In this document: piece after piece, positions 5,154 through 33,810 of the stretch
Layout of the letters: each line of letters begins with the position of its first letter
Numbering within the stretch: the stretch's first letter is position 1
DNA from: an uncultured Collinsella sp.
Lineage (GTDB): Bacteria; Actinomycetota; Coriobacteriia; Coriobacteriales; Coriobacteriaceae
NCBI GenBank assembly: GCA_902481965.1
Contig: CABSYH010000001.1
Location: 1 to 42,409 of the forward strand
Reading direction: 5' to 3'
DNA: 42,409 nucleotides
Made by a program: the position numbers and the translations under genes
Notes under the pieces: generated by a model
Seen by the model: only the letters and a program-made list of their open reading frames with translations
The model's database searches: none
What the model was told of the DNA's origin: nothing

Positions 5154-5164
5154 ATGTGATTTCC

Positions 5165-5887: not shown

Positions 5888-6040
5888 AACACGGCCCCCC
5901 TGTCTCAATTAGCTAAGAACAAGCCCATTTTAACGCACCTGAGCCCGCCGGATGCCGCTATGACGCGGCAGCTCGGCGGGCGGTACTCACAATTACAACG
6001 CGTTTATTCCCCTGTTGGCGCCTTTTTAACCCCTCTAAGC

Positions 6041-7252
6041 TTAAAGAGAGAATAGGCGTGCAGTGACCGTCTCGGGTATACCCTGGCTGTTGCGTACCGT
6101 GGCGTACGTAAGAAATGAGTCCGACTTTCCCGCCGTAGCTGGATAATCGCCATACTCTAAAGCGCGGTCGGGCGACAGCAGCGAGCCATAGGTCTTGGCA
6201 GAGGTGTCGATCAGGAAATGCGACGCCTGTACCTTAACAAGGTATTTATTCTTCTTGCCAGCCGCACATGCGAGCGGCTCGCGGGACAGGAAGAGATACG
6301 GCCCTCCCTCATTACCGATATACGTGCCCATGTTGCCCAGGCTGCCCACGCCACTATAGGTCGCCTCGATAGAAAACACGAAGGTATCGCCCATGTATAC
6401 GGCCTCGAAAGGCGAGACTGACGAGGGAAGAACTAGCTGGGCACGTTTGGTGTTGTTGCCGTCGGTCAGATCGATTGCCGTTATGCCGTAGTAGACGCCT
6501 TCGTCGTTGCGGACACGCGGCGAGATGGTCAAAATGCCGTCGCACGCGCGCGGGGCCGATGCAAAGCGGCCCGTCGATTTCCAAATTACCCCGGCCTTGG
6601 ATTCATCAAGCGAGCGACGATAGCAAAACGAATCGCTACTCGTTTTATTGCCGCCTGCCGAAGGCATTTTATACCAGATGACTGATGACCCGAACGCCGT
6701 AAACAGCGGCGGATCATAGTCCTTGCCACCTCGATCGAGCTCAACCACGTCGCCAGAGAGCGAAGCGCCCGACAGATTTTGACCGTAGAGCTTCCACGAT
6801 GAATTGGCAAAGTTCATCTCAACCCACGCGAATACGCTGTCGCCGGCACGGACATCGTAGAATGCATATCCCGTGCCCTCGATAGGATCCTCGATTAATG
6901 TGGTAAGCGAGCCATCGCCCAGGTTGAGCACACCGAGTGTGTTGGCGTGCAGTGCCGATGCGGGCGCCATCATCGCCGCGGCGTAATCGCCGTCGCAGTA
7001 GTACAGCAGCGTACCCAGAGGCAGCGTCCATGACGCCGCCGGCTCAAGATCGATGTCGACTGCCTCGTACTCATCCGTAATCGAGATAATTTTGGAATCG
7101 TCCTTGATAACCTGCGGCTCGCCGGCGGCATCATCGCTGGTGCCCGTTTTTTTCGAGCATCCGGCAAGCACCGTGGCAGCGCCCGCGGCAGCCCCACCGA
7201 GTACAAAGCCGCGACGCGATATTCCGTTCTTGATGTGATCGGCGATACCCAT
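6041..7252 (-). CDS. Tat-exported lipoprotein of unknown function
   Basis: Twin-arginine motif SRRGFV followed by lipobox LAGC; beta-rich body. Confidence 0.8.
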   Translation of the reverse strand: MGIADHIKNGISRRGFVLGGAAAGAATVLAGCSKKTGTSDDAAGEPQVIKDDSKIISITDEYEAVDIDLEPAASWTLPLGTLLYYCDGDYAAAMMAPASALHANTLGVLNLGDGSLTTLIEDPIEGTGYAFYDVRAGDSVFAWVEMNFANSSWKLYGQNLSGASLSGDVVELDRGGKDYDPPLFTAFGSSVIWYKMPSAGGNKTSSDSFCYRRSLDESKAGVIWKSTGRFASAPRACDGILTISPRVRNDEGVYYGITAIDLTDGNNTKRAQLVLPSSVSPFEAVYMGDTFVFSIEATYSGVGSLGNMGTYIGNEGGPYLFLSREPLACAAGKKNKYLVKVQASHFLIDTSAKTYGSLLSPDRALEYGDYPATAGKSDSFLTYATVRNSQGIPETVTARLFSL

Positions 7253-12700: not shown

Positions 12701-13219
12701 TGCCGCCTCGTCGATTACGACGGCTGGCGCCTCTGGAAGGCGGATGTCTCGACCACGGAATCCACCACACTCGAGGCGGAAGAGCTCGACCTTACACCCA
12801 ATACCGTCGTAACGGGCATTCGAATTGAATACGGTGCGGTAGCCGCCGACTTTACGACTCGAAGCGATGCGGATTCTTGGACCCGCGATGATCTCAAAGA
12901 TGAGCACGACGACCTTGACGATGCCAAAGCAATCCTTGGCACAGACGCTCGGGGCGCAATCGTGCACATGCAGGCGACGTCGGCTTATACGCCCCAAACC
13001 GCACTCACCAACAGCGCACGCGTCGATCTTTGCCGCAACGGCGGCGGCGATAAACTTGAGTCACATGACGAGGACCGTGTCATTCAACGCTGTACCCTAC
13101 CGCAGGACCTACCGGCAACAGGATCAGTTCCCATCGTCGCTTGCATCACCGCGCTCCTGACCTCGGGTGCCGCAGCCCTATGGTTCGCTCGCCTTAGGTC
13201 TATCCCAAAGAACCGCTAG
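9788..13219 (+). CDS. Sortase-anchored surface adhesin: N-terminal thioester (TED/TQXA) domain, multiple SpaA/CnaB-type repeats, LPXTG anchor
   Basis: Signal peptide; AYCMNQ and TQLAVW; repeated K-x-D...L-x-GA-x-F...E-x-x-AP-x-GY units; LPATG followed by a TM helix and basic tail. Confidence 0.88.
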   Translation: MSNAPTHSVHSAIATGPLLLLLFLLFGCLAPGAAFAVDGYDQLGFRTISDDCGPFFIGKYEAQDTSIAYCMNQERPGPTKPGGPWLNFDQGWVWLDDEFAAIVCHGYPTTTSFGGYHLSPDRARAATQLAVWMLNGTTHVDGTYSYTTAQGKTKSGHFTADNEVVAAARWLHDSAKSGSIEAAPHRARRYLGAVSGGSKRQDMLYVLPAVSVSFQKQSANTVITSGNNTYQFTGATFDIFESASGARVGTIKMDSNGRAQATLLPNTAYYLVETKAPAGYVPRHDRIAFTTGNDGGRVAIDEQPGTINLRIVKLDAATNAGPQVGSSLAGAEFTCVSQSTPGWAQILTTDESGRATLADVPLGTFTIYESKTPEGYLPSNDSWTYTVGADQLGDSGVVEIESRVSDIPIAFNLEISKFKDYGNSDQSGLEQPAEGVVFEVVSNSSQQVVGTLTTNVYGFASTKDQPEAWFGAGKRPAGVHGAVPYDRAGYTVREVPETVPEGFKRAGEWTVGANQISNGAELQYIVDNHALSTHLQIVKRDAQTGASVPLAGFTFQLLDSNHEPVSQTCWYPTHNVMDTFTTDATGTVTLPESLVPGTYYVRETSAKEPYLVGEEIEVNIPADMNLTPVAIASYYDHAATGNIRIVKTDAIDGSSLAGAVFEIRASSDIVRPDGSIAALDGETVATITTDETGEARADNLPLGLGTARYEVVETQAPAGFLLDRTTHIVDLTYADQKTPVVEARLNVSDDYTKVDISKVDASGEQEVEGAQLTLYGPDKTEIDSWTSSDKPHRVEHLAPGTYSLREMMSPRTYDLAEEITFEIKDTREVQSVAMKDAPIEIKGQVDKRQELVQPIEKGLLANGDGKNRAATQTNTDGLFSYTIDARNDSATWVDEFTITDDLECAKDGTARFISIETPVAIGDLNGLCNVWYRTTPLDSTDVDEPANATLDDGHENPWLESGEVKESLGEDCRLVDYDGWRLWKADVSTTESTTLEAEELDLTPNTVVTGIRIEYGAVAADFTTRSDADSWTRDDLKDEHDDLDDAKAILGTDARGAIVHMQATSAYTPQTALTNSARVDLCRNGGGDKLESHDEDRVIQRCTLPQDLPATGSVPIVACITALLTSGAAALWFARLRSIPKNR

Positions 13220-16900: not shown

Positions 16901-17923
16901 ATGACGGCAAGCGACACGACCGAGACAATTAAAAAGGGGAATTCGGAGCCCAGTTTCGATAAAACGGCTCAGCGCATCCTCAATCTTTTCTTTGTGCTCA
17001 ATAGCTCCCCCGAACCGCTGACGACCGAGCAGATCGTCTTGGATTCTGACCTGGGATATGGCTCGGGCAACATCGACTCGGATAAGCGCAAGTTTCGGCG
17101 CGATCGTGACAAACTGCTCGAGCGTGGCATCTTAATCAAGGAGGTTCGCCCCGCCGGCGCGCAGGAGACCGAGGAAAGCTCGTGGACAATTGACCGCGAG
17201 CACACCTTTGCAGCAGGCGGCCTCATCACCGCAGACGACGCCGATATCCTGCTCAACGCCATCGACCAGACACTAGCGGCCGGCTCATCCACTTTTGCCG
17301 CACCGCTTGCCGATATTCGATCAAAGATTGCCTACCTCACCGGTAGGACGACGGCGGACGAAGCACCGATCCGCCGCTCTCCCACCGTCGATGCGGTATG
17401 GAGCGCCTTTGCCGAGCGATGCGCGCTGCGATTTTTATATCAGAACGGACGCGGCGAGCAGAAAGAGCGCACCGTCTGCGTCTACGGCATGTTCGAGCGC
17501 GAGGGCGTGGCGTACTTCTGCGGCCTCGACAACGTCACCGACGACATCAGGACATTCCGCTGCGACCGTATCGTACGCGCTTGGCGTCCTTCGAAGGCCT
17601 ACGTCATCCCCGCGAACTTCAATCTCAACGACTATCTGTTCTTTGAATTCGATTTTGCCGACCGACCGCCCGTTGCAGCCACGTTCTCGTTCGCCCCTCA
17701 GACGCAGATCGATATGATCAACGGCCTCACGCGCGGGCGAGGTGAGCTCGCACACACCGATGCGGGATGGACCTGGACCGTTGACGTGCGCGATCTTGAA
17801 GCCGCCGCCTCATTTTGCATGGCCCACGCCATGGACGGCATGAGGCCCATGGCCCCCAAATCGCTCAAGCAGGCGTGGAACCACCTCATTGAAAGGACGG
17901 TGCACGAGTATGCCCGTGCGTAA
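16901..17923 (+). CDS. WYL-domain transcriptional regulator, PafB-like
   Basis: wHTH (RILNL...KRKFRRDRDKL) and WYL domain (RTVCVYG...DIRTFRCDRI). Confidence 0.88.
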   Translation: MTASDTTETIKKGNSEPSFDKTAQRILNLFFVLNSSPEPLTTEQIVLDSDLGYGSGNIDSDKRKFRRDRDKLLERGILIKEVRPAGAQETEESSWTIDREHTFAAGGLITADDADILLNAIDQTLAAGSSTFAAPLADIRSKIAYLTGRTTADEAPIRRSPTVDAVWSAFAERCALRFLYQNGRGEQKERTVCVYGMFEREGVAYFCGLDNVTDDIRTFRCDRIVRAWRPSKAYVIPANFNLNDYLFFEFDFADRPPVAATFSFAPQTQIDMINGLTRGRGELAHTDAGWTWTVDVRDLEAAASFCMAHAMDGMRPMAPKSLKQAWNHLIERTVHEYARA

Positions 17924-18827
17924 ACTCACCAGCGAGCAGAGGTTCTCGCGCGCCATCGACATCATGGAGGCCCTCTACGCCGCCGGCGAGAGCGGCATGA
18001 CACGAACCGAGATTTGCAGTCGCTTTGACATCACAGGGGTATCGCTCGACGAGATTCTCGAGATCGTCTCGACGCTCGCGGACCGAGAATCGGGCGCGCG
18101 CATCATCTGCGAATGCCGCGGCGAGCGTGTGGTCCTCACCGGTGACGCCGGGCGTGTGCTACCGCTGCGCTTGAGTGCCGCTGAGGGCGCTGTGCTCAAC
18201 CATGAACTTGAATCGTTGGGGATCGAGCCGCATACGGCAGCTCGGATTCGACATGCCCTTCTACCCGAAGAGCTTGGCTATAACCAGCGCGTCTTTGACA
18301 CCGTCAACCACGGGTCGCACTGGCAGCAGCTGAGCTGCGCCATTCAGGACGGCGTTCGCTGCCGCATCTCGTATCGCTCGATGGACGATGCACGGCCACG
18401 CGAGCGTCTGGTCGACCCCTTGCGCATTACGGCAAACGGCGACCAAACATACCTGATTGCCTGGGACATCGCAGTCGATGAGCAGCGCACCTATCGCATG
18501 GATAAAATCGAGGGACTCGCCTTGACGGAAGACTCCGTCGTGCCTCACGCACCGGACGTCGCATCCCTCCACGATTCCCTTGCCCGGACGCAGCGTAGTG
18601 CAAAACTCTTGATGCCATTCGATATGGCGGAGCATCTGGACTGGGCCGGCATCACCCTAATCGAGCGCAGCGGAGCAGACATGGCAACGGTAACCGTGCA
18701 TTACGGCTCCGAGCGTTGGCTACTGAGCCAGATAATTGCAGCGGGCGGAGCCATCCACATCTTGGATGACCCCGCCCTGTCAAAGCGTCTGTGCGATATG
18801 GCAAAAACCCTCGTCTGTCCGCTTTAA
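17910..18827 (+). CDS. WYL-domain transcriptional regulator, PafC-like
   Basis: ATG overlaps the upstream stop; PLRLSAAEG, RLVDPLRI, YLIAW, RTYRMDKI; WCX-like C-terminus. Confidence 0.88.
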   Translation: MPVRKLTSEQRFSRAIDIMEALYAAGESGMTRTEICSRFDITGVSLDEILEIVSTLADRESGARIICECRGERVVLTGDAGRVLPLRLSAAEGAVLNHELESLGIEPHTAARIRHALLPEELGYNQRVFDTVNHGSHWQQLSCAIQDGVRCRISYRSMDDARPRERLVDPLRITANGDQTYLIAWDIAVDEQRTYRMDKIEGLALTEDSVVPHAPDVASLHDSLARTQRSAKLLMPFDMAEHLDWAGITLIERSGADMATVTVHYGSERWLLSQIIAAGGAIHILDDPALSKRLCDMAKTLVCPL

Positions 18828-21718
18828 CGCCGCCGCTCGTGGCGTGCGCGCCACAGTTGCAGATAGTGCCCGATCTGCGCCGATTCGATGCGCTGGTAGG
18901 AGCTCGTGGGCAGCGACGTTAAGAACTTCTTTCCGTAGCCCTTCGTCACCAGGCGCGGGTCGGCCAGAATCAGCACGCCGCAATCGGTCGACGAGCGGAT
19001 AAGGCGTCCGGCCGCCTGCTTGACCTCGAGCACCGCCTCGGGCAGCGAATAGCGCGCCCAAGCGCGGTCTTCGCGCAGGTTGCGCTCGCACGAGAGCGGG
19101 TCCGTGGGACTCGAGAACGGCAGCTTGGGAATGATGACGCAGCGCAGCGTCTCGCCGCTGGCGTCGAATCCCTCCCAGAAGGCCTTAAGAGCAAAAAGCG
19201 ACGAGGTCGGCTCGTTGATAAACCGGTCGCGCAGGCGACGAGGAGATGAGTTGCGCTGCTGGCAGTTGAGCTCCAGACCCGCACGGGCCATCTTGGGCTC
19301 AACGCGGGCGTACAGGTCTTCCATGTCGCGCCGATTGGTGAACAGTGTGAGCACCGATCCGCCCATGGCAAGATGGGCGTCGACCAGCACGCGCTCGAGC
19401 GCCGTAAGATAGCTCTCACGATCGCGCGGATCGGGGATATCGCCCGCAACGACTACAGCCATGTTCGAATCGAAGTCGTAACTCGAGTCCAAGTGCAACG
19501 ATGAGGATGTTGAAGCACCAATGCGATCGAGGCCGACCGCGTGGTTAAAGTGTTCAAAGCTTTTGGACACCGTCATGGTCGCCGAGGCAAAGATAGCCGT
19601 GTGAACCTCGGGCAGCCACTCGGTTGCCAAGGCCTCGCCAATGTCGATGCGCTCTGCGGTCATTGACTCTCCGCCGGCACGCAGCCTGCGATTGACCTGC
19701 AGCGAATACACGTAGTGTTCATCGGTGCCGTCAATGATGAGTTTGAGGTTCTCGGCCAGCTCGTGCAGGCGGCGCGAAATATCACCCAGGTCGACAACAA
19801 CCTCGGGCTTGTCGGCGGCGACGGCTTGCACCAGCGCGTCGACGCTCTTGTCAGCTCGTTCCAATGCATCGATGGCAGCGTAGGCCGACGGTAAGAAATC
19901 ATGCCAGTCGTCAGATTCGCGCAGCTCGGGGCCAATCCATAGATTGGCATTGTCATAACCCCCACGGGCACGGCGGCCGAGCTCGCGAACGTCATCGAAC
20001 ACGTCGGCGATTGCCATGCTCGCGCGCGCAACCGTCGACGTCGCCTTGGCAGTAAGGCCCAGATAGAGCGTAGAGCCCTCGGAGGTTGCCAAATCACGGG
20101 AAACCTGGCTTAGCGCACCGGTGCTCGAGCCACCCAGGCGCTCAAACAGAACGCGTGATTCGTCCGCCGACACCACGCGCGCCCACTGACGGCGCGCCTC
20201 GCGCTCGATAGAATGGGCCTCGTCGATTACCCAATGACGAATCGGAGGCAAAATCCTGCCCTCGGCCGCAACATTGCGGAACAGCAGGGAATGGTTGGTG
20301 ACCACCACATCGGCATGCGCCGCACGACGGCGAGCGCCGTGGACCAAACATTTATCAGGGAAAAACGGGCAGAGGCGACGAGCACACTCGCGCGAGGCCG
20401 TCGTAAAGTCGGGGCGGTTGACGCTGCGCCACCGAATGCCAAGTGAGTCGAGGTCGCCATCGGCTGATTGGCAAACGTACGCCATAATGACCGCGACCGC
20501 CGTGAGCGTGTCCGCCGGATCGCGCTTGGTGGTAATCTCGACCTGGCCGCGGCTCATGCGCTCAAGCTTGCGCAGGCACGGATAGTGGTCATACCCCTTG
20601 AGAGCGCAAAATGACAGACCACCTTCCAGTTGCTCGGCAAGTTTTGGAAGCTCATGGTACATGAGCTGGTCGGCTAGATTGTTCGATTTGGTCGCAATAC
20701 CAACCGTGATGTTGTTACGGCGTGCTGCCTCGGCAAAAGGCACCAGATAGGCCATCGATTTGCCGACGCCTGTGCCCGCCTCAATTACACGATGAGTGCC
20801 CGTGACCAGCGCATCGCGGACCTCGAGCGCCATCGCGATCTGCTCATCACGCGGCTCGTAAGTGGGATACATGCGATTGACCAGGCCACCCGGCGCATAG
20901 TCTGCCTCAATCTCCTCACGACTCGGCATCTTGAGGACCGGTAGTTCGTCGGCGTCCACCCGATCGTCGGCGCGATCGGCCTTGAGAACGTCAGCACGAG
21001 CGGCGCTGAGAGAGAAGATAGAACCAGGGTTCTGCCCTGCCAAGAATGAGAAGATAGGACGATAGGACCAAGGCACGCCCGGATGCATGTCGGCTAGGCG
21101 CGCCATGAGGCCCTGGGGCAAGTCGGTGAGTGCCACAAGCAACACGCGCCATACGCCACACAGGGCGTCGACGTCGGCATTGGCACGGTGTGATACCGAG
21201 TCACAGCCAAACAGATCGGCCATAAAAGACAGCTTGTGCGAGGCCAGGCGCGGAAGCGCGATTCGCGACAGCGCCAGCGAATCGATCCAAATATCGCTCA
21301 CGTTGACACCGCCTTTGACCGACTCGATAAACGAGCGGTCGAACGTGGCGTTATGTGCAATCACCGGGCAACCACCGACAAAATCGGCGAGAGCGGCGAC
21401 GGCCTCAACGGCCGACGGGGCATCTGCCACATCGGCATTTGTAATGCTCGTGAGCTCGGTAATCTCGGCGGGAATCAGCTGCTTGGGATGCACGAAGGTA
21501 TCGAAGCGGTCGACGATCTCGCGGCCCGAAAGACGGGCCGCCGAGATCTCGATCAGCTCGTTGTCCTGCACCGAAAGACCTGTGGTCTCGGTATCGAGGA
21601 CAATCACATCTTCCTCGATGAGGCCGAAGGACTGCGTTTTGGCACGTTCGGCAAGCGTGGCATAGGAGTCGATGACAAACTGCGGCGTTCCTGACGAAAC
21701 CGCGTCCTCGATTAGCAT
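18824..21718 (-). CDS. dinG: DEDDh 3'-5' exonuclease (DnaQ-like) fused to a DinG/XPD-family helicase
   Basis: VLDTETTG, AHNATFD, HRANADV; Walker A EAGTGVGKS, DEAH, SAT, FWEGFD, KLPF, QAAGRLIR; Cys cluster compatible with an Fe-S site. Confidence 0.92.
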   Translation of the reverse strand: MLIEDAVSSGTPQFVIDSYATLAERAKTQSFGLIEEDVIVLDTETTGLSVQDNELIEISAARLSGREIVDRFDTFVHPKQLIPAEITELTSITNADVADAPSAVEAVAALADFVGGCPVIAHNATFDRSFIESVKGGVNVSDIWIDSLALSRIALPRLASHKLSFMADLFGCDSVSHRANADVDALCGVWRVLLVALTDLPQGLMARLADMHPGVPWSYRPIFSFLAGQNPGSIFSLSAARADVLKADRADDRVDADELPVLKMPSREEIEADYAPGGLVNRMYPTYEPRDEQIAMALEVRDALVTGTHRVIEAGTGVGKSMAYLVPFAEAARRNNITVGIATKSNNLADQLMYHELPKLAEQLEGGLSFCALKGYDHYPCLRKLERMSRGQVEITTKRDPADTLTAVAVIMAYVCQSADGDLDSLGIRWRSVNRPDFTTASRECARRLCPFFPDKCLVHGARRRAAHADVVVTNHSLLFRNVAAEGRILPPIRHWVIDEAHSIEREARRQWARVVSADESRVLFERLGGSSTGALSQVSRDLATSEGSTLYLGLTAKATSTVARASMAIADVFDDVRELGRRARGGYDNANLWIGPELRESDDWHDFLPSAYAAIDALERADKSVDALVQAVAADKPEVVVDLGDISRRLHELAENLKLIIDGTDEHYVYSLQVNRRLRAGGESMTAERIDIGEALATEWLPEVHTAIFASATMTVSKSFEHFNHAVGLDRIGASTSSSLHLDSSYDFDSNMAVVVAGDIPDPRDRESYLTALERVLVDAHLAMGGSVLTLFTNRRDMEDLYARVEPKMARAGLELNCQQRNSSPRRLRDRFINEPTSSLFALKAFWEGFDASGETLRCVIIPKLPFSSPTDPLSCERNLREDRAWARYSLPEAVLEVKQAAGRLIRSSTDCGVLILADPRLVTKGYGKKFLTSLPTSSYQRIESAQIGHYLQLWRARHERRR

Positions 21719-22677
21719 GCAATGCCCGCCCGACGAAGACCCATACGGATCAGGCTGTCACAGACCTGCGGGAACGTCATGTCGTCGGTGTGGCGGATCT
21801 CATCCGGATACAGCGACGTATCGGTCATGCCGGGAATGGTATTGGTCTCGAGGATAACGGGGCCGTCCTCGCTCACGATAAAATCGCTGCGCGAGATGCC
21901 CAGGCAACCGAGCGCCTTGTGAGCGGCACAGGCAAGCTCTTGGGCACGAGCGTAGTTCTCGGGTGAAATCTGCGCCGGAATGCGATGGATGTCCGTAGGG
22001 TCGACATATTTCACGTCCAGATCGTAGAACTCGCAGTCCTCGGGCTTACGAATCTCGACAATCGGCAGGGCGTGCACGTCATCTTCACCGTATACGCCGA
22101 CGGTGATCTCGGTACCCTCGATGCACTTCTCGACCAGCACTTTGTCGCCGTACTCAAACGCCTTGGCGATTGCCGCGGGCAGCTCGGAGGGCTCATGGAC
22201 CAGGGAAATGCCATAGCTGGAACCGTTGACGGCCGGCTTCACAAAGCAGCGCTCGCCACAGACCTCGACGATATGATCGATATCGACTTCATCGCCCACC
22301 TCGAGCGCAAGGCCGGGGGCAATGGGAATGCCCGCCTTGGCGTACAGGAGCTTAGAGACCTCCTTGTCGGCACCGCAGGCGCTGGCAAGCACGCCCGAGG
22401 CCGTGTAGGGGATACCCAGGGTCTCCATGGCGCCTTGCATGGCGCCATCCTCGCCGCCGGCACCGTGCATGGCGATAAACGCCACGTCAAAGCCGCCGGT
22501 CGCCATGGTTACCATAAAGTCATCAGCGGCCGTGTCGAGCAGCTCCACCGAAGTGTAGCCGGCCTCCTTCAAGGCAACCACGACGTTCTTTCCCGAATTG
22601 AGCGAGATCTCGCGCTCGGCGGAATGACCGCCCGCCAAGACCGCTACGTGCATGTTCTCTAGGCTTTTACCCGGCAT
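21712..22677 (-). CDS. ddl: D-alanine--D-alanine ligase
   Basis: GGHSAEREISL, HGAGGEDG, VKPAVNGSSYG, FYDLDVKY, ETNTIPGMTDTSLYP. Confidence 0.93.
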   Translation of the reverse strand: MPGKSLENMHVAVLAGGHSAEREISLNSGKNVVVALKEAGYTSVELLDTAADDFMVTMATGGFDVAFIAMHGAGGEDGAMQGAMETLGIPYTASGVLASACGADKEVSKLLYAKAGIPIAPGLALEVGDEVDIDHIVEVCGERCFVKPAVNGSSYGISLVHEPSELPAAIAKAFEYGDKVLVEKCIEGTEITVGVYGEDDVHALPIVEIRKPEDCEFYDLDVKYVDPTDIHRIPAQISPENYARAQELACAAHKALGCLGISRSDFIVSEDGPVILETNTIPGMTDTSLYPDEIRHTDDMTFPQVCDSLIRMGLRRAGIAC

Positions 22678-22762
22678 GGGCAGACTCCTCCTCTATAATT
22701 TCTGCAGCTGATACCATATTGTAGCGATACCCTCTACGTTTCCCCAAAATCGAAAGGCTTCC

Positions 22763-23815
22763 ATGAATCCCAGGACTAAATCTCAGGACATTCGCGACTT
22801 GAGCCAAAACGATATTCGCGAGCTCGTGGCCGAGCTTGGCCAGCCCGCCTTCCGCGCGAAGCAGCTCATCGAATGGGTCTTTGAGAAGAACGTTTGTTCG
22901 TTTGACGATATGACCAACCTTCCCAAGGCTTTCCGCGAGCAGCTTAAAGAGGCTTTTGCCTTTGACACGCCGACTGAACTCACCAAGCAGGTTTCCAAAG
23001 ATGGCTCTCGCAAGTATCTGCTCGAGTACCACGACGGCGTTTCCGTCGAGACCGTCGGCATGCCCCGTCGCAACAAGCTTTCCGTCTGCGTTTCCACCCA
23101 GGCAGGCTGTGGCATGGGCTGTGCCTTTTGCGCTACCGGTCTCAACGGCCTCAAGCGCTCTCTGACCGCTCAAGAGATCGTCGACCAGGTACTTCATGTA
23201 TCCAACGACTTTGGCGAACGTGCCACGAGCGTTGTCTTCATGGGGCAGGGCGAGCCGTTTGCCAACTACGACGAGGTTCTCAAGGCGCTGCGAATCCTCA
23301 ACGACCCCGATGGCATCGGTATCGGCGCTCGTCACCTCACTGTCTCTACCAGTGGCGTTATTCCCGGTATTCGCAAATTTGCCGACATCCCTGAGCAGTT
23401 CACGCTTGCCGTTTCCTTGCATTCCGCCATCCAGTCGACGCGCAATAAGCTCATGCCCGGTGTTAAGAAGTACACGCTGCTTCGCCTTCACGAGGCGCTT
23501 CAACTCTACACCGAGAAGACTGGCCGCCGCCCGACCTATGAGTATGCCATGATCGAAGGCGTCAACGATACGAATCCCGAGATGCAGGCGCTCTGCGACT
23601 TCTGCGAGGGAACGTTGTGCCACGTCAACCTGATTCAGCTTAACGACATCGAGGGCAGCCCGCTCAAGCCGTCGCCGATTCATAAGGTTGAGGATCTTCA
23701 GCGTCGTCTTGAGTCCCGTGGCATCGAGACCACGATTCGTAACTCCCGTGGTAACGATATTGACGCCGCTTGCGGACAGCTGAAGCAGCGCTTCAAAGTT
23801 CAGAAGAACGCATAG
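22763..23815 (+). CDS. rlmN: Radical SAM dual-specificity rRNA/tRNA methyltransferase
   Basis: CVSTQAGCGMGCAFC, MGQGEP, AVSLH, DIDAACGQL. Confidence 0.96.
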   Translation: MNPRTKSQDIRDLSQNDIRELVAELGQPAFRAKQLIEWVFEKNVCSFDDMTNLPKAFREQLKEAFAFDTPTELTKQVSKDGSRKYLLEYHDGVSVETVGMPRRNKLSVCVSTQAGCGMGCAFCATGLNGLKRSLTAQEIVDQVLHVSNDFGERATSVVFMGQGEPFANYDEVLKALRILNDPDGIGIGARHLTVSTSGVIPGIRKFADIPEQFTLAVSLHSAIQSTRNKLMPGVKKYTLLRLHEALQLYTEKTGRRPTYEYAMIEGVNDTNPEMQALCDFCEGTLCHVNLIQLNDIEGSPLKPSPIHKVEDLQRRLESRGIETTIRNSRGNDIDAACGQLKQRFKVQKNA

Positions 23816-23833
23816 GGGAGTCGCACCCCAAAA

Positions 23834-23849
23834 CGTTTCATGTGAAACA
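23834..23849. promoter_or_regulatory. parS site
   Basis: CGTTTCATGTGAAACA vs consensus TGTTTCACGTGAAACA. Confidence 0.8.
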
Positions 23850-23852
23850 TCG

Positions 23853-23983
23853 AACGGCCACGGTTGCAGGAAATGCAACCGTGGCCGTTTCATTTATTGA
23901 CCTTAATTTTGAATCAGCTGCTACCTGTCCCATTTTTTACGGCCAAAATACGGGGTCCTTGTCTCGTGAATCAGACAAGGACC
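23853..23983. terminator. Two terminator-like hairpins between convergent rlmN and parB units
   Basis: aacggccacggttgca/tgcaaccgtggccgtt and gggtccttgtct/agacaaggaccc. Confidence 0.7.
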
Positions 23984-24014: not shown

Positions 24015-24269
24015 CTAATAGCCTACATTTTCCCATTGGTTGCTAACCCAACCTTGATTAATCTTAGGATTCTTCGTTACCTGAGCTGTACGCATGGCAA
24101 CATCTTCTGTCATAACATTCATTTTCTTCTTGGAAGTATCGACGATATCTTGCGCGCCTCGAAGCAGACGACCTCGAAGCTCATCGTCTGTCGCGATCTT
24201 ATATCCAGCAAAGGCACCAGCTGCGACAGTCGTCGCCAATGCAATCGCAGTTAAAATCTTATTCCTCAT
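24015..24269 (-). CDS. Small membrane-anchored hypothetical protein coupled to parB
   Basis: ATG at 24269 with AGGAGG lies inside the parB 3' end; N-terminal hydrophobic helix. Confidence 0.7.
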   Translation of the reverse strand: MRNKILTAIALATTVAAGAFAGYKIATDDELRGRLLRGAQDIVDTSKKKMNVMTEDVAMRTAQVTKNPKINQGWVSNQWENVGY

Positions 24270-25164
24270 CTTGGCCTCCTTGATCAAACTGAATCATTTC
24301 GCCAAGAATACGAGAGAGCTCTTCCTCGTCTTTAAACTCAATCTCAATCTTATTCTTTCCACGCGAGCTCTTCACACGCACGTTGGTATTAAAAACCTGA
24401 CGAAGCACGCGGGCAGCCTTTTTAAAAGACTGAGGCGTTGCAGGCCTCGGCTTCTTAGGTGTCTCTCCGGCAGAAAACAACGGAGCGAGATTTTCTGTCG
24501 CTCTTACGGAAAGGCCCTCTGCAACAACCTTCTCTGCAAGTCGAATTCGAGCGTCCTCATAGGGAACTGCAAGAATAGCACGCGCATGACCAGCAGTAAG
24601 TTTGCCCTCAAAAATCATCTGCTGAACAACTTCAGGGAGATCGAGAAGGCGCAGCGAGTTTGTAATTGCAGAGCGTGACTTGCTTACCGCCCTCGACAAT
24701 GCCTCCTGGGTCATACCGCTGGCATCGATGAGCTGTCGATAGCCCTTAGCCTCTTCGACGGGATTCAGATCAGAACGTTGAAGGTTTTCGATAAGAGCAA
24801 GAGCCAGCATCTCTTCATCGTTAACATCTTTAATGATGACAGGCAGTTCCTCAAGACCAGCAAGCTTTGAAGCTTGGTAACGACGCTCACCAGCAATGAT
24901 CACATAGCCGTTTCCATGCTTGCGAACCAAAAGCGGCTGCAAAACGCCATGTTCTTGGATTGACTCGCTCAACTCGCGAAGTTCAGTTTCGTTAAAGTGA
25001 ATTCGCGGCTGATTAGGGTTGGGAACGATATCCTCAATAGGTAGTTTTGTTTCAGATGCAGCATTCGAAGCCGATGCAGCCGAACCACCGGTCTCATACT
25101 CGGCCTCTGAGACCAAAGCATTGAGTCCACGTCCCAATCCGCCACGTTTCTTTACACTAGGCAC
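24259..25164 (-). CDS. parB: Chromosome partitioning protein ParB/Spo0J
   Basis: GLGRGLNAL, PNPNQPR, IIAGERRYQA, ENLQRSDLNPVEEA, HTH, GHARAIL. Confidence 0.97.
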   Translation of the reverse strand: MPSVKKRGGLGRGLNALVSEAEYETGGSAASASNAASETKLPIEDIVPNPNQPRIHFNETELRELSESIQEHGVLQPLLVRKHGNGYVIIAGERRYQASKLAGLEELPVIIKDVNDEEMLALALIENLQRSDLNPVEEAKGYRQLIDASGMTQEALSRAVSKSRSAITNSLRLLDLPEVVQQMIFEGKLTAGHARAILAVPYEDARIRLAEKVVAEGLSVRATENLAPLFSAGETPKKPRPATPQSFKKAARVLRQVFNTNVRVKSSRGKNKIEIEFKDEEELSRILGEMIQFDQGGQDEE

Positions 25165-28564: not shown

Positions 28565-28899
28565 CGCTCCTCCCCGGCAACGCCGGCGCGCTTCATAAGC
28601 GAACGCAACGCCTTGTCCATCTCCTGCGGCGAGGAAACCCTCGTCTTGGGAGTTGCAAACAAGATGATGTCATAACCCGCAACGGGAAATCCGCAGCTGC
28701 GGGCGGCCTCGCGCATCACACGCTTAGATCGGTTGCGCACGACGGCACAACCGAGTCGCTTAGCACCAACGAAGGCGACCCTTCCGGAGTCGCCTTCGCC
28801 AACCGATTCACATATGGTCATTCGAATCAGAGGGTGATTGAAACGACGCCCCTGACTGAACACATGCTCGAAATCTTGCCGAGACTTAATAGTCTTCAT
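28561..28899 (-). CDS. rnpA: Ribonuclease P protein component
   Basis: RNR motif AVVRNRSKR; position after rpmH. Confidence 0.93.
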
Positions 28900-28919
28900 G
28901 CGAGATGTGTGTATCGCTG

Positions 28920-29054
28920 CTAGACAGTGAGACGCTTGCGGCCCTTGGCGCGACGACGGGCGAGCACGGCACGACCACCCTTAGTGGCCATACGGGCACG
29001 GAAGCCATGGGTCTTGGCACGCTTACGCTTATTAGGCTGATACGTACGCTTCAT
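28920..29054 (-). CDS. rpmH: 50S ribosomal protein L34
   Basis: [44 protein letters not shown]. Confidence 0.98.
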
Positions 29055-29199
29055 CTTAAGTTCCTCCTGCTGCATTTCGAGTGTCCGCGGGGACGCGGAC
29101 GCAGATATAGACACGTGAGCTTGAAGATTGTAGGGAAATCAATGTTCAAATGTCAAGAAATCAAAGGTAAAAGGTTGCGCAGTTCACACGGTTCCCCCA

Positions 29200-29395
29200 T
29201 AAGCACAACCGAAATTTGCGCCTCATGGCAACCTTTCACGATATTTCATCAAGTTTTCAACAGGTCATGTTGGCAATGTTGAGAACTTTTCACCCGTTTT
29301 CCAAAGTTTTCAACAAGTTTTGAAAAGTTGTCGAAAGATGAGAAACGTTGCACGGTGAGCTACTATTTGTTCGAAACCTTTTGAAAGATTGCGAG
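29200..29395. promoter_or_regulatory. Upstream oriC sub-region with putative variant DnaA boxes
   Basis: AT-rich; TTTTCAACA at 29254 and 29307; reverse-strand TTCTCAACA (29277) and TTGCCAACA (29268), plus further degenerate copies. Confidence 0.65.
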
Positions 29396-29399
29396 CGGC

Positions 29400-30728
29400 A
29401 TGTCTGACGACTTTTACACCATGGTCGATTCCGGAGACCCGGCACCCGACAACGAGCACATCACCGGCGTGCGCGAAGAGCGTGCGGAAGGCGAGCAGAC
29501 GACCACGCAGGCGCCAAAAGCCATGTACGCCGCGCGCATCGCCGTCTATGACGACATGCTGTCGACACCGCGGGTGATCGTCATTGATCCGCAAGATGTC
29601 CGCACGTATTTGGAAGAGACGACCAACACCGTCTACCAGTGCATGAAAGAACAAGGTGGCCATATCTCGCTCATGGTCATCCGCGAGATTGTCGAAAACT
29701 TTATCCACGCACACTTTGCCGAGCCCATCATCTCGATTCTGGACGGCGGAGACACCATCCGCTTTGCTGACCAAGGACCCGGCATCGACGACAAGGAACG
29801 TGCTTTCGACTTTGGCGTTACCAGCGCAAACAGCAAGATGAAGCGCTATATCCGTGGAACCGGAGCAGGGTTTCCCATGGTGCAGGAGTATTTGGAAAAC
29901 GCCGGCGGTGCCGTATCCATCGAGGACAACATGGGCAACGGCACCGTGGTTACGGTAAGCCTGAACCCTAAACGCGTGCAGGAAATCGAGCGTGCCGGCG
30001 GACGCGGCGCTGCCGTGCGGCCCGAGACGGAGCAGCCCACATATCCCCTGCCGGGAGCTTTTGCGCAGCAGCCCGTGGCAACGCAGCAGATGCAGCCCCC
30101 CGTGGGACAGATGCAGCAGCCCGGAATGCTTCCCACACAAGAACCCCAGGCGGCATCTATGTCGATGCCGCCAAACATGCCAGAGGCCATGCCGCTGGCT
30201 GATCAGGATGCAGCAGCAATGCAGCAGGCGACGGGGGCGCCGGGTGGCCAGCAAATGGGCTATCAGCCGTACCAACAGGGATATCCATATCAGCAGATGC
30301 CGCCACTGGGGTATGGCCAGCAGTTCCCGCAGCAGTACCAGCAGATGCCGCAGCAGCAGTACAACCCCTGGGCCCAGCAGACGCCTCCGCAGCCTTACCA
30401 ACAGTGGCCTCAAAGTTTTCAACAGCAAATGCCGCCGACGCAGAGTTCTCAACAACCAGCAGCTCAAATGATGTATCCTAATGCAGTAAATCAGTATGCA
30501 CAGCCACAACCGGACGTGTTCGTAAGCGATCGCGGCAACGCCGCGCTGGGCTATCTGGCGCAAAATCAAGCGTGCGGCGCAACCGATCTTGCGAGGGCGT
30601 TTGGAAACTCGGCCCCCACTTGGTCACGCACGCTCAATGACTTGGCGCAGGCCGGCTTGGTCATCAAGCATGGCCAGAAATACCATCTGACCGAACTCGG
30701 CGCCGCTCGCGTGCGAGCTCAGAGCTAA
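29400..30728 (+). CDS. GHKL/HATPase_c-type ATPase with Gln/Pro-rich linker and C-terminal winged-helix domain; function unknown
   Basis: N-box REIVENFIHA, G1 DQGPGI, G2 GTGAGF, G3 GTVVTV; Q/P-rich segment; ATDLARAFGNSAPTWSRTLNDLAQAGLV HTH. Confidence 0.85.
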   Translation: MSDDFYTMVDSGDPAPDNEHITGVREERAEGEQTTTQAPKAMYAARIAVYDDMLSTPRVIVIDPQDVRTYLEETTNTVYQCMKEQGGHISLMVIREIVENFIHAHFAEPIISILDGGDTIRFADQGPGIDDKERAFDFGVTSANSKMKRYIRGTGAGFPMVQEYLENAGGAVSIEDNMGNGTVVTVSLNPKRVQEIERAGGRGAAVRPETEQPTYPLPGAFAQQPVATQQMQPPVGQMQQPGMLPTQEPQAASMSMPPNMPEAMPLADQDAAAMQQATGAPGGQQMGYQPYQQGYPYQQMPPLGYGQQFPQQYQQMPQQQYNPWAQQTPPQPYQQWPQSFQQQMPPTQSSQQPAAQMMYPNAVNQYAQPQPDVFVSDRGNAALGYLAQNQACGATDLARAFGNSAPTWSRTLNDLAQAGLVIKHGQKYHLTELGAARVRAQS

Positions 30729-30743
30729 AGAACGGGAGAGACA

Positions 30744-32468
30744 GTGGACGAGGAAGCAAGCATCATCCTGGGGGATGCCATCGCCTTTTGCCAGCGCGAC
30801 GGCCAAGATGCACGCCTCATCAACATGCTGGGGCAATCGCGCGCCATAAGCCTGACCGAAGATACGCTCACGATCGAGGCCCCCTCGCGCTTTGCCATCG
30901 CGCAGCTCAAAAAGCATCAGCCGACTATTGAGGCCTATCTGGAAGAAATCGCCTTTGCACCGATTGCTCTCGACATCGTGGCACCGCAAGGCGCCGCGAC
31001 GGAATCCGCTGCCGCCACGGCGCCCGCCACGGCTCCCGCTGCTTCCCCGGCGGTGCCGGCCTCCGCAGGCGATGTGCCGACAATCGAGCACCAGCACAGC
31101 GATGTTTCCCGTGAAACAATGGCACCGTTGACGAGCGCGGCGGCGACGTCAACGAACGCACCCGTCACGCACATGCCCATCGCTCACGACGCAGCGGCGG
31201 GCGCGGATTCGGGCATTGCAATCAAGAACACGCTCTCGGCCGACGATTTTCGTCGCATGATGAACCAGATGAAGGGCGGAGCGCCGACTAAATCCACGCA
31301 AGCTGCGGCCCCCGCTTCACCCATGCCAGCACCGACCGTGCCGGCCGAGCAGAATACGGATGGAGCCCCGCTTGCCGCGAACTCAAAATTTACCTTTGAG
31401 AACTTTGTCTACGGCCCCGAGAACAGCCATGCCTATCGCTCGGCACTCAAGTTTGCCGCCCTCGCGGACGAGCGCGGCACATGCACATCCCTGTTCATCT
31501 ATGGCAAATCGGGGCTGGGCAAGACCCATCTGCTGCTCGCCATCAAAAACGAGCTCGCCGAGAAGTCGCCCGAGATCAAGGTCAAGTATGCCAACTCCCA
31601 GGCATATCTGGACGACCTGATGACCGAGTTCGACCGTCAAAAGAAGAGCAACGCCCCCATCATGCAGGCGTACCACGGCGTGGACGTGCTCATCATCGAT
31701 GACATCCAAAACATCATCGGCAAGCGCGCGAGCGTGGACTACTTCTTCCAGCTCATGGACGAGTTCATCCGCAACAACAAGAAGGTCGTCATCGCGGCAG
31801 ACCGCGCCCCCAAGGACCTGAGCATGGACGAGCGTCTGACCAGCCGCTTCAACGCCGGCATGCTCTGCCTGGTCGCAGAGCCCAGCTACGAGATGAAATA
31901 CAAGATCTTGCAGCGCTATTACGAGAACACCATCGTCGCCGCTCCCGAGGCGGGCGACGACTCGCTGCTGGCGGCCTATGGGGGCGACGGCGGGCACCTG
32001 ACCGACGAACACTTTAAACACATGGCCGAGGTCTCGGGCACCAACATCCGCGAACTCGAGAGCTTTTGCGAGCGCTGCGCCGGCGAGGCGGGCGACCGCG
32101 AGCGCGAGGGCGGAGAGCTCACCTTTGACGATATCGACGCCATCGCCAGCCAGTACTTCGACACATCGGCCAAAAAGATCAACGTCCAGACGGTTCAGTC
32201 CGTCATCGAAGAGCAGTACGGCGTGACACACGAGGAGCTCATCGGCCCGCGTCGCAACGCCAATATCGCCAAAGCACGCCATATCGCTATCTACCTGGCC
32301 ATCGAGATGTGCGAAATGACGACCACGGCGGTGGGCGCCGAATTTGGCAACCGCAACCACTCGACCGTCAGCACGAGCTACAAAAAGGTCCAGAAGATGA
32401 TCCAGGAAGACCGCACCGTCACCGAAGACCTCAAGTCGCTGCGCGATAAAATTACACTGCGTTCGTAG
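30744..32468 (+). CDS. dnaA: Chromosomal replication initiator
   Basis: FTFENFV, YGKSGLGKTHLL, LIIDDIQ, RLTSRF, NIRELES; domain IV ARHIAIYL...FGNRNHSTV; directly upstream of dnaN. Confidence 0.95.
   Translation: MDEEASIILGDAIAFCQRDGQDARLINMLGQSRAISLTEDTLTIEAPSRFAIAQLKKHQPTIEAYLEEIAFAPIALDIVAPQGAATESAAATAPATAPAASPAVPASAGDVPTIEHQHSDVSRETMAPLTSAAATSTNAPVTHMPIAHDAAAGADSGIAIKNTLSADDFRRMMNQMKGGAPTKSTQAAAPASPMPAPTVPAEQNTDGAPLAANSKFTFENFVYGPENSHAYRSALKFAALADERGTCTSLFIYGKSGLGKTHLLLAIKNELAEKSPEIKVKYANSQAYLDDLMTEFDRQKKSNAPIMQAYHGVDVLIIDDIQNIIGKRASVDYFFQLMDEFIRNNKKVVIAADRAPKDLSMDERLTSRFNAGMLCLVAEPSYEMKYKILQRYYENTIVAAPEAGDDSLLAAYGGDGGHLTDEHFKHMAEVSGTNIRELESFCERCAGEAGDREREGGELTFDDIDAIASQYFDTSAKKINVQTVQSVIEEQYGVTHEELIGPRRNANIAKARHIAIYLAIEMCEMTTTAVGAEFGNRNHSTVSTSYKKVQKMIQEDRTVTEDLKSLRDKITLRS
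31103..31118. promoter_or_regulatory. parS site inside the dnaA coding sequence
   Basis: TGTTTCCCGTGAAACA, 15/16 match to consensus. Confidence 0.75.
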
Positions 32469-32706
32469 GGAAATAGAGACACCTGTTGAAAACTTGTCGA
32501 AACCACGGGCATAAGGTGTCTAAAACCCAACCCGCGGTGATGAAAAGTTTTGCGCAGGTTTTGAACGTGGAAAACCACCCCCGTTGCACACAGGTTGCTG
32601 TCGATTCTCTTTCTGGGTCTGACCTGCGTCTTTGGGAGTAATCAACGGTTTCGTCAGTGCTATTACTATTATTAAGATATTTATATCTATAGAAAGGTAT
32701 TAAAAG
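32469..32706. other. oriC, dnaA-dnaN sub-region: variant DnaA boxes, DnaA-trios and AT-rich unwinding element
   Basis: TGTTGAAAA at 32484, TGTCGAAAC at 32495, TGATGAAAA at 32538, CGTGGAAAA at 32566; CTATTACTATTATTA at 32660-32674 then an AT-rich run. Confidence 0.8.
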
Positions 32707-33810
32707 ATGAAGTTCACCGTCAGCCAGAGCTCGCTTACACAAGCCATCGGCGTCGTAATGAAGGGTGTCGCTTCGGCATCCACCCTTCCCATCCTGTCGG
32801 GCGTGCTCGTCAAGGCGCAAGACGGCATCTTGGAATTCCAGACCTCTAACTACACCATCTCGATCCGTCATCGCATCGCGGCGCATGTCGAAGAAGAGGG
32901 CGAGATGGTTATCCCCTGTAAGATGCTCTCCAATATCACCAAGACCCTCCCCGATGCCCCGGTCACCTTTGAGCTGTCCGAGCGCCAGGTGCTGATTGGT
33001 TGCGAGAAGAGCTCTTTTAGGCTGAACACGCTCGATGCTAATGACTTCCCCGAGTTTCCGGCCTATGCCATCGAGAGCGCCGTGGAACTGCCGACCGATA
33101 TCTTGTCCGAGATGGTCGGCCGCGTGTGGCGCGTCACCTCGACCGACAAGGCCCGCCCCATCCTGGGTGGCGTGCACATGAAGGTCGAGAACAACACCGT
33201 GCGCCTGGTGGCGACCGATTCCTTCCGCTTGGCCGTGTGCGATACGCAGGTCGAGACCTCAACCCTCGAGGGCTCCTTTGAACTCAACGTTCCGGCCGAC
33301 GCCTTTAACGACGCGCTGAACATCATGGCCAGCCAGGCGACCATCATGATCGGGGCTACCGACACCCAGGTCGTCTTTGAGGCCGGCAACACCACCTACG
33401 TGTCGCGCCGCATCGAGGGCGTGTACCCCAACTACAAGCAGCTCATCCCCGATTCGTGCGTGACGAGCGTCAAGATCGACGTCGCCGCCTTTAACGCCGC
33501 CCTCAAGCGCGTGGCCGTTATCGCGAGCGCCAACCCCGCCGTCAAGTTCGAGATCGATGTCGAGAACGGGCAGATGGGCCTGTCCTCCATTTCCAATGAC
33601 CAGGACCTTGCGCAGGAGACGATCGATGTCGAGGCCGAGGGCGAGTCGGGCACCATCGCCTTCAACTACCACTACATCTTCGGCTGCCTCAATGCCCTAT
33701 CCAAGGAGAAGGAGATCACGCTGGAGCTCAAGAGCTACTCGCAGGCGGGCATCTTCAAGTCCTACGACAAGATCAACTACCTGTACCTGGTCATGCCGGT
33801 CCGCATCTAG
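32707..33810 (+). CDS. dnaN: DNA polymerase III beta sliding clamp
   Basis: LPILSGVL, VATDSFRLA, SRRIEGVYPNY, YLVMPVRI. Confidence 0.97.
   Translation: MKFTVSQSSLTQAIGVVMKGVASASTLPILSGVLVKAQDGILEFQTSNYTISIRHRIAAHVEEEGEMVIPCKMLSNITKTLPDAPVTFELSERQVLIGCEKSSFRLNTLDANDFPEFPAYAIESAVELPTDILSEMVGRVWRVTSTDKARPILGGVHMKVENNTVRLVATDSFRLAVCDTQVETSTLEGSFELNVPADAFNDALNIMASQATIMIGATDTQVVFEAGNTTYVSRRIEGVYPNYKQLIPDSCVTSVKIDVAAFNAALKRVAVIASANPAVKFEIDVENGQMGLSSISNDQDLAQETIDVEAEGESGTIAFNYHYIFGCLNALSKEKEITLELKSYSQAGIFKSYDKINYLYLVMPVRI

Follow-up and report, generated by a model that had tools for sequence, protein, structure and literature searches.

A kinase-type ATPase domain joined to a winged helix and encoded directly upstream of dnaA in Collinsella: a possible regulator acting on origin-region DNA

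What does a protein do that is encoded between the ribosomal protein gene rpmH and the replication initiator gene dnaA, and does its function bear on chromosome replication? This question is raised by a stretch of DNA of 42,409 nt from an uncultured Collinsella sp. (contig CABSYH010000001.1 of assembly GCA_902481965.1), referred to here in its full length as the window, in which a gene of 442 codons lies in the rpmH-dnaA interval. The gene, which we call X, is built from known domains whose combination and genomic setting are new to the literature searched. We propose, with a probability of roughly 0.35, that X is an ATP-dependent DNA-binding regulator which would be co-transcribed with dnaA and act on DNA of the origin region. 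A preliminary description of the window had placed a 442-amino-acid gene at this position, at the head of dnaA and ending 15 nt before the dnaA GTG codon at 30744, and the list of open reading frames (ORFs) together with the Pfam matches of DnaA confirmed this. The gene end given there (30743) took in the 15-nt spacer; X itself ends at 30728 with the TAA stop codon at 30726-30728.

X is a real gene, and both of its folded domains are under strong purifying selection. Comparison of 80 Collinsella loci with the window gave ratios of nonsynonymous to synonymous polymorphism (pN/pS) of 0.021 for the ATP-binding core and 0.027 for the wHTH (winged helix-turn-helix), and of 0.24 and 0.20 for the linker and the N-terminal tail, respectively. 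The same two parts, the core (residues ~40-195) and the C-terminal wHTH, are shared by the relatives of X. All of the 100 aligned full-length family members contain HATPase_c, and residues N100, D124, G126, G128, G153, G155, G157 and G181 were found in every one of them, T185 in 99 and E96 in 97; the choice of this set had relied in part on the N and G1 motifs. A second set was picked by flanking anchors only, and here D-x-G-P-G-I was present in 121 of 121 proteins and E-N-x-x-H-A in 118, the other three having E-N-x-x-H-S. Since all ATP-contacting motifs are invariant, the domain most likely binds ATP.

Pfam assigned residues 93-189 of X to HATPase_c (PF02518; E=1e-10, 42.5 bits at a cut-off of 26.4), and the motifs of the family can all be located: the N box at E96/E99/N100, G1 at D124-G126-G128, G2 at G153-G155-G157 and G3 at G181/T185. 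The reference catalytic and ATP-binding (CA) domain for hhalign was taken from the window itself, from the HAMP-HisKA-HATPase_c kinase which forms a two-component pair with an OmpR-type response regulator at 3588-5908 (minus strand). The X family matched this kinase with a probability of 97% (E=9e-11), residues 60-195 of X being aligned to its entire CA domain (354-513 of 521), from the first strand of that domain onwards. The GyrB protein of the window was matched with a probability of 12% and in the N-box/G1 region only, and MutL was touched by the family profile only at residues 16-77. The best PDB matches were the solved kinases HK853 and KinB. In NCBIfam, many sensor kinase models were hit weakly through their ATPase ends, every score falling far short of its cut-off. 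Downstream of residue 195, X continues into a low-complexity linker without a transducer domain. The option of an ATP-gated clamp like GyrB or MutL, which had been raised in the preliminary description, is therefore disfavoured, and the domain is a complete CA domain of the histidine kinase type.

X lacks the other domains of a two-component histidine kinase. With Pfam, no HisKA-type family was found at E<=1 and no sensor input domain (PAS, HAMP, GAF etc.) was detected in X; the hydropathy profile gave no membrane segment (highest Kyte-Doolittle mean over 19 residues, 1.0). The part preceding the CA domain consists merely of a strand region of 16 residues and the variable tail, which leaves no room for a dimerization and histidine phosphotransfer (DHp) hairpin. 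Judged by its domain make-up, X is not a two-component histidine kinase, as it has neither a DHp domain nor a sensor. Like the CA domains of sensor kinases (HK853, PDB 3dge/2c2a; KinB, PDB 3d36), X has kept the N, G1, G2 and G3 boxes and scores above the HATPase_c cut-off. Unlike sensor kinases, it has no DHp/HisKA domain, sensor domain or membrane segment, spans about 15 residues fewer from helix 1 to the N box, and bears a family-specific N-terminal strand (ARIAVYDD) and the C-terminal wHTH. The anatomy that had been outlined before, with an intact GHKL domain, a Gln/Pro-rich linker and a C-terminal wHTH but neither a His-acceptor nor a membrane segment, agrees with the results of Pfam, hydropathy, composition and family profile.

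The wHTH of X most likely binds DNA, as its relationships to solved and classified domains suggest. The family profile matched the wHTH of Csa3 (E=4.6e-6) as well as a PhiH1 repressor-like protein, MntR, AdcR and many MarR/Lrp proteins, with E values between 5e-6 and 1e-3 for Csa3, MntR, AdcR and MarR. Among the 100 aligned members, HVO_A0261_N was matched in 69, HTH_IclR in 38, MarR in 32 and TrmB in 25 at E<=1e-3.

The linker which joins the two domains is a spacer of free length. In X it consists of 26% Gln, 18% Pro, 11% Ala, 8% Met and 6% Tyr, and in the family its length varies from 2 to 346 amino acids (median 114), with a median Gln plus Pro fraction of 0.30 in the 87 of 100 members that have a linker of at least 30 amino acids. 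It also varies within the genus: 79 of the 80 Collinsella loci encode a protein of 450 amino acids and one encodes 443. The allele of the window differs from those 79 by a deletion of 8 amino acids in the linker, and the indel (~30318-30335, residues 307-312) falls in a Gln-rich region of imperfect tandem repeats of 12 and 21 nt.

The N-terminal tail carries a motif with the family consensus M-x-x-D-F-Y-P-F-V-E/D, for which X has DDFYTMV; in the species group of X, F-Y-P-F-V reads F-Y-T-M-V (residues 4-8, 29409-29423). A motif of the F-Y-P-F-V type was found in 53 of the 100 aligned members, the tails of which are 5 to 203 amino acids long. In 18 members the spacer is absent and an aromatic-D-Y/F-x-x-V motif directly precedes the first strand, which suggests that the aromatic motif may pack onto the domain. 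The F-Y-P-F-V motif may serve as a docking peptide or as an intramolecular strand. A reading of it as a beta-clamp-binding peptide like that of Hda was dropped because of its poor fit to the consensus of such peptides and because of the packing suggested by the related aromatic motif.

X belongs to a large family without a name of its own. When 1.84 billion cluster representatives were searched exhaustively with HMMER, 813 clusters at 50% identity were found at E<=1e-3, 453 at E<=1e-10 and 263 at E<=1e-30; the weakest of the 813 may be generic kinases. A word-indexed search scored 7,998 candidates, among which were 1,879 clusters at 90% identity. The closest of these comprises 19,470 member sequences, and among the 120 clusters listed none is named. 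The public names of the relatives are generic ('ATP-binding protein', 'histidine kinase family protein'). In the ESM Atlas, where taxon labels are few, Actinomycetota was the commonest phylum for close and distant clusters alike, and the members of the family are apparently mostly Actinomycetota. The family, which had been taken to be lineage-specific, is not so in a narrow sense, given the 263 clusters at the strictest threshold. That it is uncharacterised was borne out: none of Pfam, NCBIfam, PADLOC and PHROGs has a family specific to X (the PADLOC and PHROGs matches are to generic wHTH or kinase families), and the PDB matches include no solved relative beyond the generic domains. Full-text searches of the literature outside subscription journals turned up no account of a gene lying between rpmH and dnaA in Coriobacteriia, nor of such a pair of domains encoded at dnaA. 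A tblastn search against plasmids hit 39 records, all in the generic kinase ATPase region and at less than 60% identity, and the search against phages gave no match; these comparisons yielded no family member and no sign of a mobile or phage origin of X. Three distant relatives (P0249, P0126 and P0205) have N-termini that were over-extended by the gene caller and contain the peptides VFHNF..PFSTT, VVENP and VENP. If back-translated to DnaA boxes of the TTTTCCACA type, these peptides would hint at box clusters in front of distant family members too; this was set aside as anecdotal, the cases being too few and the reading too degenerate to serve as evidence.

The linkage of X to dnaA was followed by a profile search of species-genome contigs with a 33-member alignment. 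It gave 599 pattern-matched stretches, at least 572 of which encode a relative, and the best 80 were kept. All of these are Collinsella-like (C. aerofaciens and other Collinsella), with X proteins 94-98% identical to that of the window. The order with divergent rpmH, X and dnaA is preserved: dnaA was found in 80 of 80 loci at an identical distance from X, and rpmH, which forms the left edge of the interval, in 79, with a 100% identical RpmH protein in each of these. One of the 80 loci (L043), on a contig labelled 'Oscillospiraceae bacterium', contains a rpmH-X-dnaA region of the Collinsella type (X 95% and DnaA 99% identical); the contig is probably mis-binned.

The arrangement of the junction makes co-transcription and translational coupling of X and dnaA plausible. 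Co-transcription is likely because the two genes are separated by a 15-nt spacer on the same strand, because the three terminator-like sites found in 28800-33000 are all on the minus strand and none is on the plus strand, and because the RNA of the junction is predicted to be less structured than 199 of 200 shuffled sequences (z=+2.65). The co-expression with DnaA that had been proposed previously is therefore plausible. Moreover, synthesis of X should track that of DnaA, since the conserved leader, together with the box array, has been taken over by X, and only a ribosome-binding site parts X from dnaA. The two genes also share a reading frame, parted by the TAA codon and five codons (30726-30746), and the stop codon and the spacing are kept in all 80 loci. 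A fusion of X and DnaA by read-through of the single stop codon is conceivable; the shared frame is probably a coincidence.

The DNA in front of X contains a helically phased array of repeats resembling DnaA boxes, and the box cluster that had been noted there was thus recovered. In the 345-nt spacer between rpmH and X, five 22-nt copies of a repeat family lie at 29245-29391 with start-to-start spacings of 43, 21, 10 and 51 nt, and Tandem Repeats Finder reported a 10-nt unit, GTTTTCAAAA, in 4.1 copies at 29296-29337. The window contains the exact sequence TTTTCAACA at four sites (29254, 29307, 30416 and 32484), all within 29254-32492; 0.17 occurrences were expected from 100 shuffles, none of which reached four. 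With up to one mismatch, TTWTCMACA had 35 matches in the window against an expectation of 18.3; the interval from 29254 to 32574 accounts for 15 of them. We take these repeats to be putative DnaA boxes from their likeness to the consensus TTATCCACA. A composite motif of 17 nt occurs in direct orientation on both sides of the X-dnaA pair; its upstream copy was found in 64 of 80 loci and the downstream copy in 68 of the 73 loci covering the site, both being present in 56. A paired DnaA-box module is one possible reading of this motif; another is the target site of the winged helix of X.

The leader of X is nearly constant. Among 50 distinct upstream sequences from the 80 loci, variation was centred on 29176-29230, and almost none was seen at 29328-29399. 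The promoter assumed in this leader is a candidate only, because the consensus scan of 28800-33000 gave no sigma-70-like promoter on the plus strand (the sole promoter-like site being that of rpmH on the minus strand) and the hexamers chosen by eye match the consensus at only 8 of 12 positions. An Rfam search of the same region gave no match at E<=0.1.

In a bipartite oriC of the Bacillus type, DnaA-box clusters lie on both sides of dnaA. The locus described here is like it in having box-like clusters at 29245-29391 and 32484-32574 and an AT-rich stretch beside the downstream cluster, and unlike it in the extra protein-coding gene X between the upstream cluster and dnaA. The AT-rich stretch contains a run of TAN triplets (TAT TAC TAT TAT TAA), which is reminiscent of DnaA-trio or unwinding elements, and from what is known of Actinobacteria and Bacillus we presume the dnaA-dnaN spacer to be the likelier unwinding site. 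The statement of the preliminary description that X lies inside the origin consequently holds in the bipartite sense only, as the AT-rich candidate unwinding site is found in the dnaA-dnaN spacer, and for the same reason the upstream array may simply be the promoter of an autoregulated operon. It resembles the box cluster and autoregulated promoter found upstream of dnaA.

In the model that we infer for ATP binding, DNA binding, co-transcription, target DNA and any effect on replication, X would be a soluble two-module regulator. Its C-terminal MarR/Csa3-like winged helix would contact DNA and would be joined by the flexible Gln/Pro-rich linker of variable length to a complete CA domain that has lost, or never had, the His-acceptor helices. 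X would be the first cistron of the dnaA-dnaN operon in Collinsella, with a transcript starting from the conserved leader within the phased array, and the dose of X would follow that of DnaA. Binding of ATP by the CA domain would switch the self-association of X or its grip on DNA. The targets would be the promoter of the dnaA operon and/or the box clusters flanking X-dnaA, and the action of X would tune dnaA expression or initiation. Control of DnaA in Actinomycetota other than mycobacteria and streptomycetes is little understood, and Collinsella are among the commonest Actinomycetota of the human gut. If the linkage to dnaA is general, an ATP-binding, DNA-binding protein encoded on the message of DnaA would be a candidate for initiation control of a new class. 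Should the linkage not be general, a large unnamed family resembling one-component regulators, with a CA domain without a His-acceptor domain joined to a wHTH, would still merit naming.

Several findings weigh against this model. The evidence on X bears on replication indirectly at most, and the conserved gene order is uninformative on a deep linkage to dnaA, because all 80 loci are from Collinsella and their X proteins are 94-98% identical to X of the window. The wHTH of X itself remained below every Pfam cut-off (HVO_A0261_N 31.8 bits at a cut-off of 35, MarR_2 21.7 at 27), and when compared alone with solved MarR and MepR structures it reached E values of only ~0.2. The box-like motifs, which are putative, deviate at two positions from the canonical DnaA box, and 6 of the 15 matches near the genes fall within the coding sequence of X. 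At least those in the part coding for the linker are coding by-products of Gln codons: these 9-mers derive from Phe/Ser-Gln-Gln codons, and CAA accounts for 11 of 46 Gln codons in the linker and 57 of 260 in the other genes. As the Gln codon usage of the linker is the same as that of other genes, the motifs there were rejected as functional DnaA boxes. The box-like 9-mers within X are located at 29690-29709 and 30395-30454. A separate non-consensus promoter of dnaA inside X is possible, since the scan gave no plus-strand promoter before either X or dnaA. No fused form of X, with DnaA or otherwise, was seen among longer proteins (831-2370 amino acids, the size range covered), which is weak evidence. 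Finally, a CA domain on its own might just as well act as a kinase.

The strongest rival explanation is that X is an ordinary one-component transcription factor, in which a nucleotide- or ligand-binding domain controls the wHTH and the regulon is unrelated to replication. The position before dnaA would then be an accident of local gene order or a route to growth-rate-coupled, origin-proximal expression. We regard this as possible, if on the whole rather unlikely. A sensor-like domain followed by a wHTH is the architecture of one-component systems, and the wHTH resembles those of the MarR, IclR, TrmB and Csa3 regulators. The family is large and diverse, its linkage to dnaA was seen within one genus, the public names of the relatives are generic, and the lack of DnaA fusions among longer proteins fits as well, weak as that evidence is. 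However, X lies between the box array and dnaA with a spacer of 15 nt and has taken over the conserved leader, so its expression would be tied to that of DnaA whatever X does. In addition, the recognition-helix residues T-W-S/T-R, compared by eye, are kept across diverged members of the F-Y-P-F-V type, which fits a conserved target better than a regulon that changes fast.

X may also be a DNA-tethered protein kinase, the CA domain of which would phosphorylate a substrate in trans while the wHTH would only localise it. The substrate would be DnaA or some other protein bound at the origin, a His-acceptor on a separate protein, or the tail or linker of X itself. The mode of action would be that of SpoIIAB/RsbW, which are Ser kinases of the anti-sigma type, or that of CapK, by which the repressor CapS is phosphorylated. 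We consider this explanation unlikely, even though X has a complete CA domain that conserves E96, the Glu of the catalytic type (97 of 100 members), as well as the Mg-binding Asn and every Gly box, and the lack of a transducer domain makes it kinase-like rather than clamp-like. Lone GHKL kinases exist, and the conserved N-terminal motif on its flexible tether could serve as a docking or substrate element. SpoIIAB and RsbW resemble X as lone cytoplasmic GHKL domains of ~150 amino acids with no His-acceptor domain, and the N box E-x-x-x-N-x-x-x-H of X is presumably shared with them; they differ from X in having neither the wHTH nor the long linker. Against a kinase of this type, HATPase_c_2 (PF13581), the SpoIIAB type, was absent from the 12 Pfam families listed for X at E<=1, and it was not among the best 25 of the 30 families matched by the 100 members at E<=1e-3. 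The Pfam scan of 33 window ORFs, which mostly left out ORFs below 100 amino acids, found no STAS or sigma-factor domain and no HisKA-only partner; the STAS-domain antagonist and the sigma factor of such kinases are usually encoded close by. Furthermore, the alignment shows no His, Ser or Thr that is conserved apart from the ATP-binding motifs and would suggest itself as an acceptor.

The closest precedent for such a kinase is the CapK/CapS system (PMC13373217). In that system, CapK (HTH-STAS-GHKL) is directly followed by CapS (a STAS-wHTH repressor) upstream of an immune operon, ATP-dependent phosphorylation alters DNA binding and single-stranded DNA activates the system (PMC13373217). As in X, a GHKL kinase-type domain is paired with a (w)HTH; it is encoded directly upstream of the operon under its control, as X would be. 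Unlike CapK/CapS, X is a single polypeptide without a STAS domain according to Pfam, the gene following it is dnaA and not a defence gene, and PADLOC gave only generic wHTH matches on X.

The proposed regulator of origin-region DNA could be specified further. X would then be an Actinomycetota-specific, dedicated initiation regulator, working as an ATP-driven kinase or a nucleotide-gated switch. With its winged helix on the flanking DnaA-box clusters it would gate or modify the assembly of DnaA at oriC, and it would be made in fixed proportion to DnaA from a shared autoregulated transcript. This fuller version seems doubtful to us. If true, it would mean GHKL-based initiation control without a counterpart among regulators of the Hda, YabA, SirA, SeqA and MtrA types. 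The known regulators of DnaA and oriC include Hda, YabA, SirA, Soj, DiaA/HobA, SeqA, MtrA, AdpA and CtrA, of which MtrA, AdpA and CtrA are DNA-binding regulators occupying oriC. X is like them in its hypothesised role. None of them is known to have a GHKL domain or to head the dnaA operon, and NCBIfam models of these regulators were not seen among the best 25 of the 42 families that matched X at E<=1. That X is a chromatin or scaffold protein of the origin region, whose wHTH-bound molecules self-associate through the Gln/Pro/Tyr/Met-rich linker under the control of ATP, perhaps in a condensate, is very improbable: repeated sites do flank X-dnaA and a Gln/Pro-rich linker is a family trait (median fraction 0.30), but many members can do without the linker (minimum 2 amino acids), it is under relaxed constraint (pN/pS 0.24) with indels, and its high Pro content argues for a spacer.

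Table 1 Coordinates of gene X, its parts and the surrounding features in the window
Feature	Position	Strand	Remarks
rpmH (ribosomal protein L34)	28920..29054	-	Pfam Ribosomal_L34, 85 bits, residues 21-64 of the listed ORF; divergent from X
DnaA-box-like repeat array	29245..29391		rpmH-X spacer; TTTTCAACA (twice), TTTTCCAAA, TTCTCAACA, TTTTCAAAA; putative boxes
17-nt composite motif, upstream copy	29320..29336	+	TTGAAAA[G/C]TTGTCGAAA; 64-80 nt before X start
Presumed operon promoter and 5' leader	29328..29399	+	~70 nt adjoining X start; nearly invariant
Candidate -35 (weak)	29338-29343	+	ATGAGA; read by eye
Candidate -10	29361-29366	+	TACTAT; read by eye
Gene X	29400..30728	+	442 aa, ATG start; kinase-type ATP-binding domain, Q/P-rich linker, winged helix
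X, N-terminal tail	29400..29528	+	Residues 1-43; conserved motif, then variable, probably disordered spacer
X, core domain	29529..29984	+	Residues 44-195; strand ARIAVYDD..PRV, then complete CA (Bergerat-fold) domain
X, Gln/Pro-rich low-complexity linker	29985..30515	+	Residues 196-372
X, C-terminal wHTH	30516..30725	+	Residues 373-442 (wHTH ~377-436); MarR/IclR/Csa3-like
X-dnaA spacer	30729..30743	+	15 nt, agaacgggagagaca; GGGAG Shine-Dalgarno-like run five bases before GTG
dnaA	30744..32468	+	574 aa, GTG start; long Ala/Pro/Thr-rich domain II; Pfam Bac_DnaA 143 bits, Bac_DnaA_C 74 bits
dnaA-dnaN spacer	32469..32706		238 nt; box-like motifs at 32484, 32538 and 32566; second copy of the 17-nt motif
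17-nt composite motif, downstream copy	32486-32502	same orientation	TTGAAAA[G/C]TTGTCGAAA; ~20 nt past dnaA stop
AT-rich stretch, candidate unwinding element	~32660-32706		Directly before dnaN; ~17% GC, counted by eye
dnaN (beta clamp)	32707..33810	+	Pfam DNA_pol3_beta, three domains; next gene of the presumed operon

The gene surroundings of X (Table 1) are those of a textbook origin region. On the minus-strand side lie parB, parA, rsmG, jag/khpB, yidC, yidD, rnpA and rpmH, the start codon of the last being likely the ATG at 29054. On the plus strand, X is followed by dnaA, dnaN, recF, a DciA-like gene, gyrB and gyrA. DnaA scored 308.9 bits with the NCBIfam equivalog TIGR00362, below the cut-off of 343.9, presumably because of its long domain II rich in Ala, Pro and Thr (~residues 80-210).

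In other parts of the window, three ORFs of 408, 403 and 194 amino acids (22667-23893, minus strand; 6041-7252, minus strand; 24094-24678, plus strand) remained without a match in Pfam or NCBIfam at E<=1e-5; the 408-amino-acid ORF sits between ddl and parB. Two adjacent WYL-domain proteins (16901-18827, plus strand) and a DinG-like exonuclease-helicase with RNase_T, DEAD and Helicase_C_2 domains (18824-21718, minus strand) are encoded on opposite strands, and the WYL pair looks like a PafBC-like pair of DNA-damage regulators. The plus-strand ORF at 9788-13219 encodes a surface protein of 1,143 amino acids that has five prealbumin-fold repeats of the SpaA type besides a thioester domain and is likely an adhesin or a pilin-like protein.

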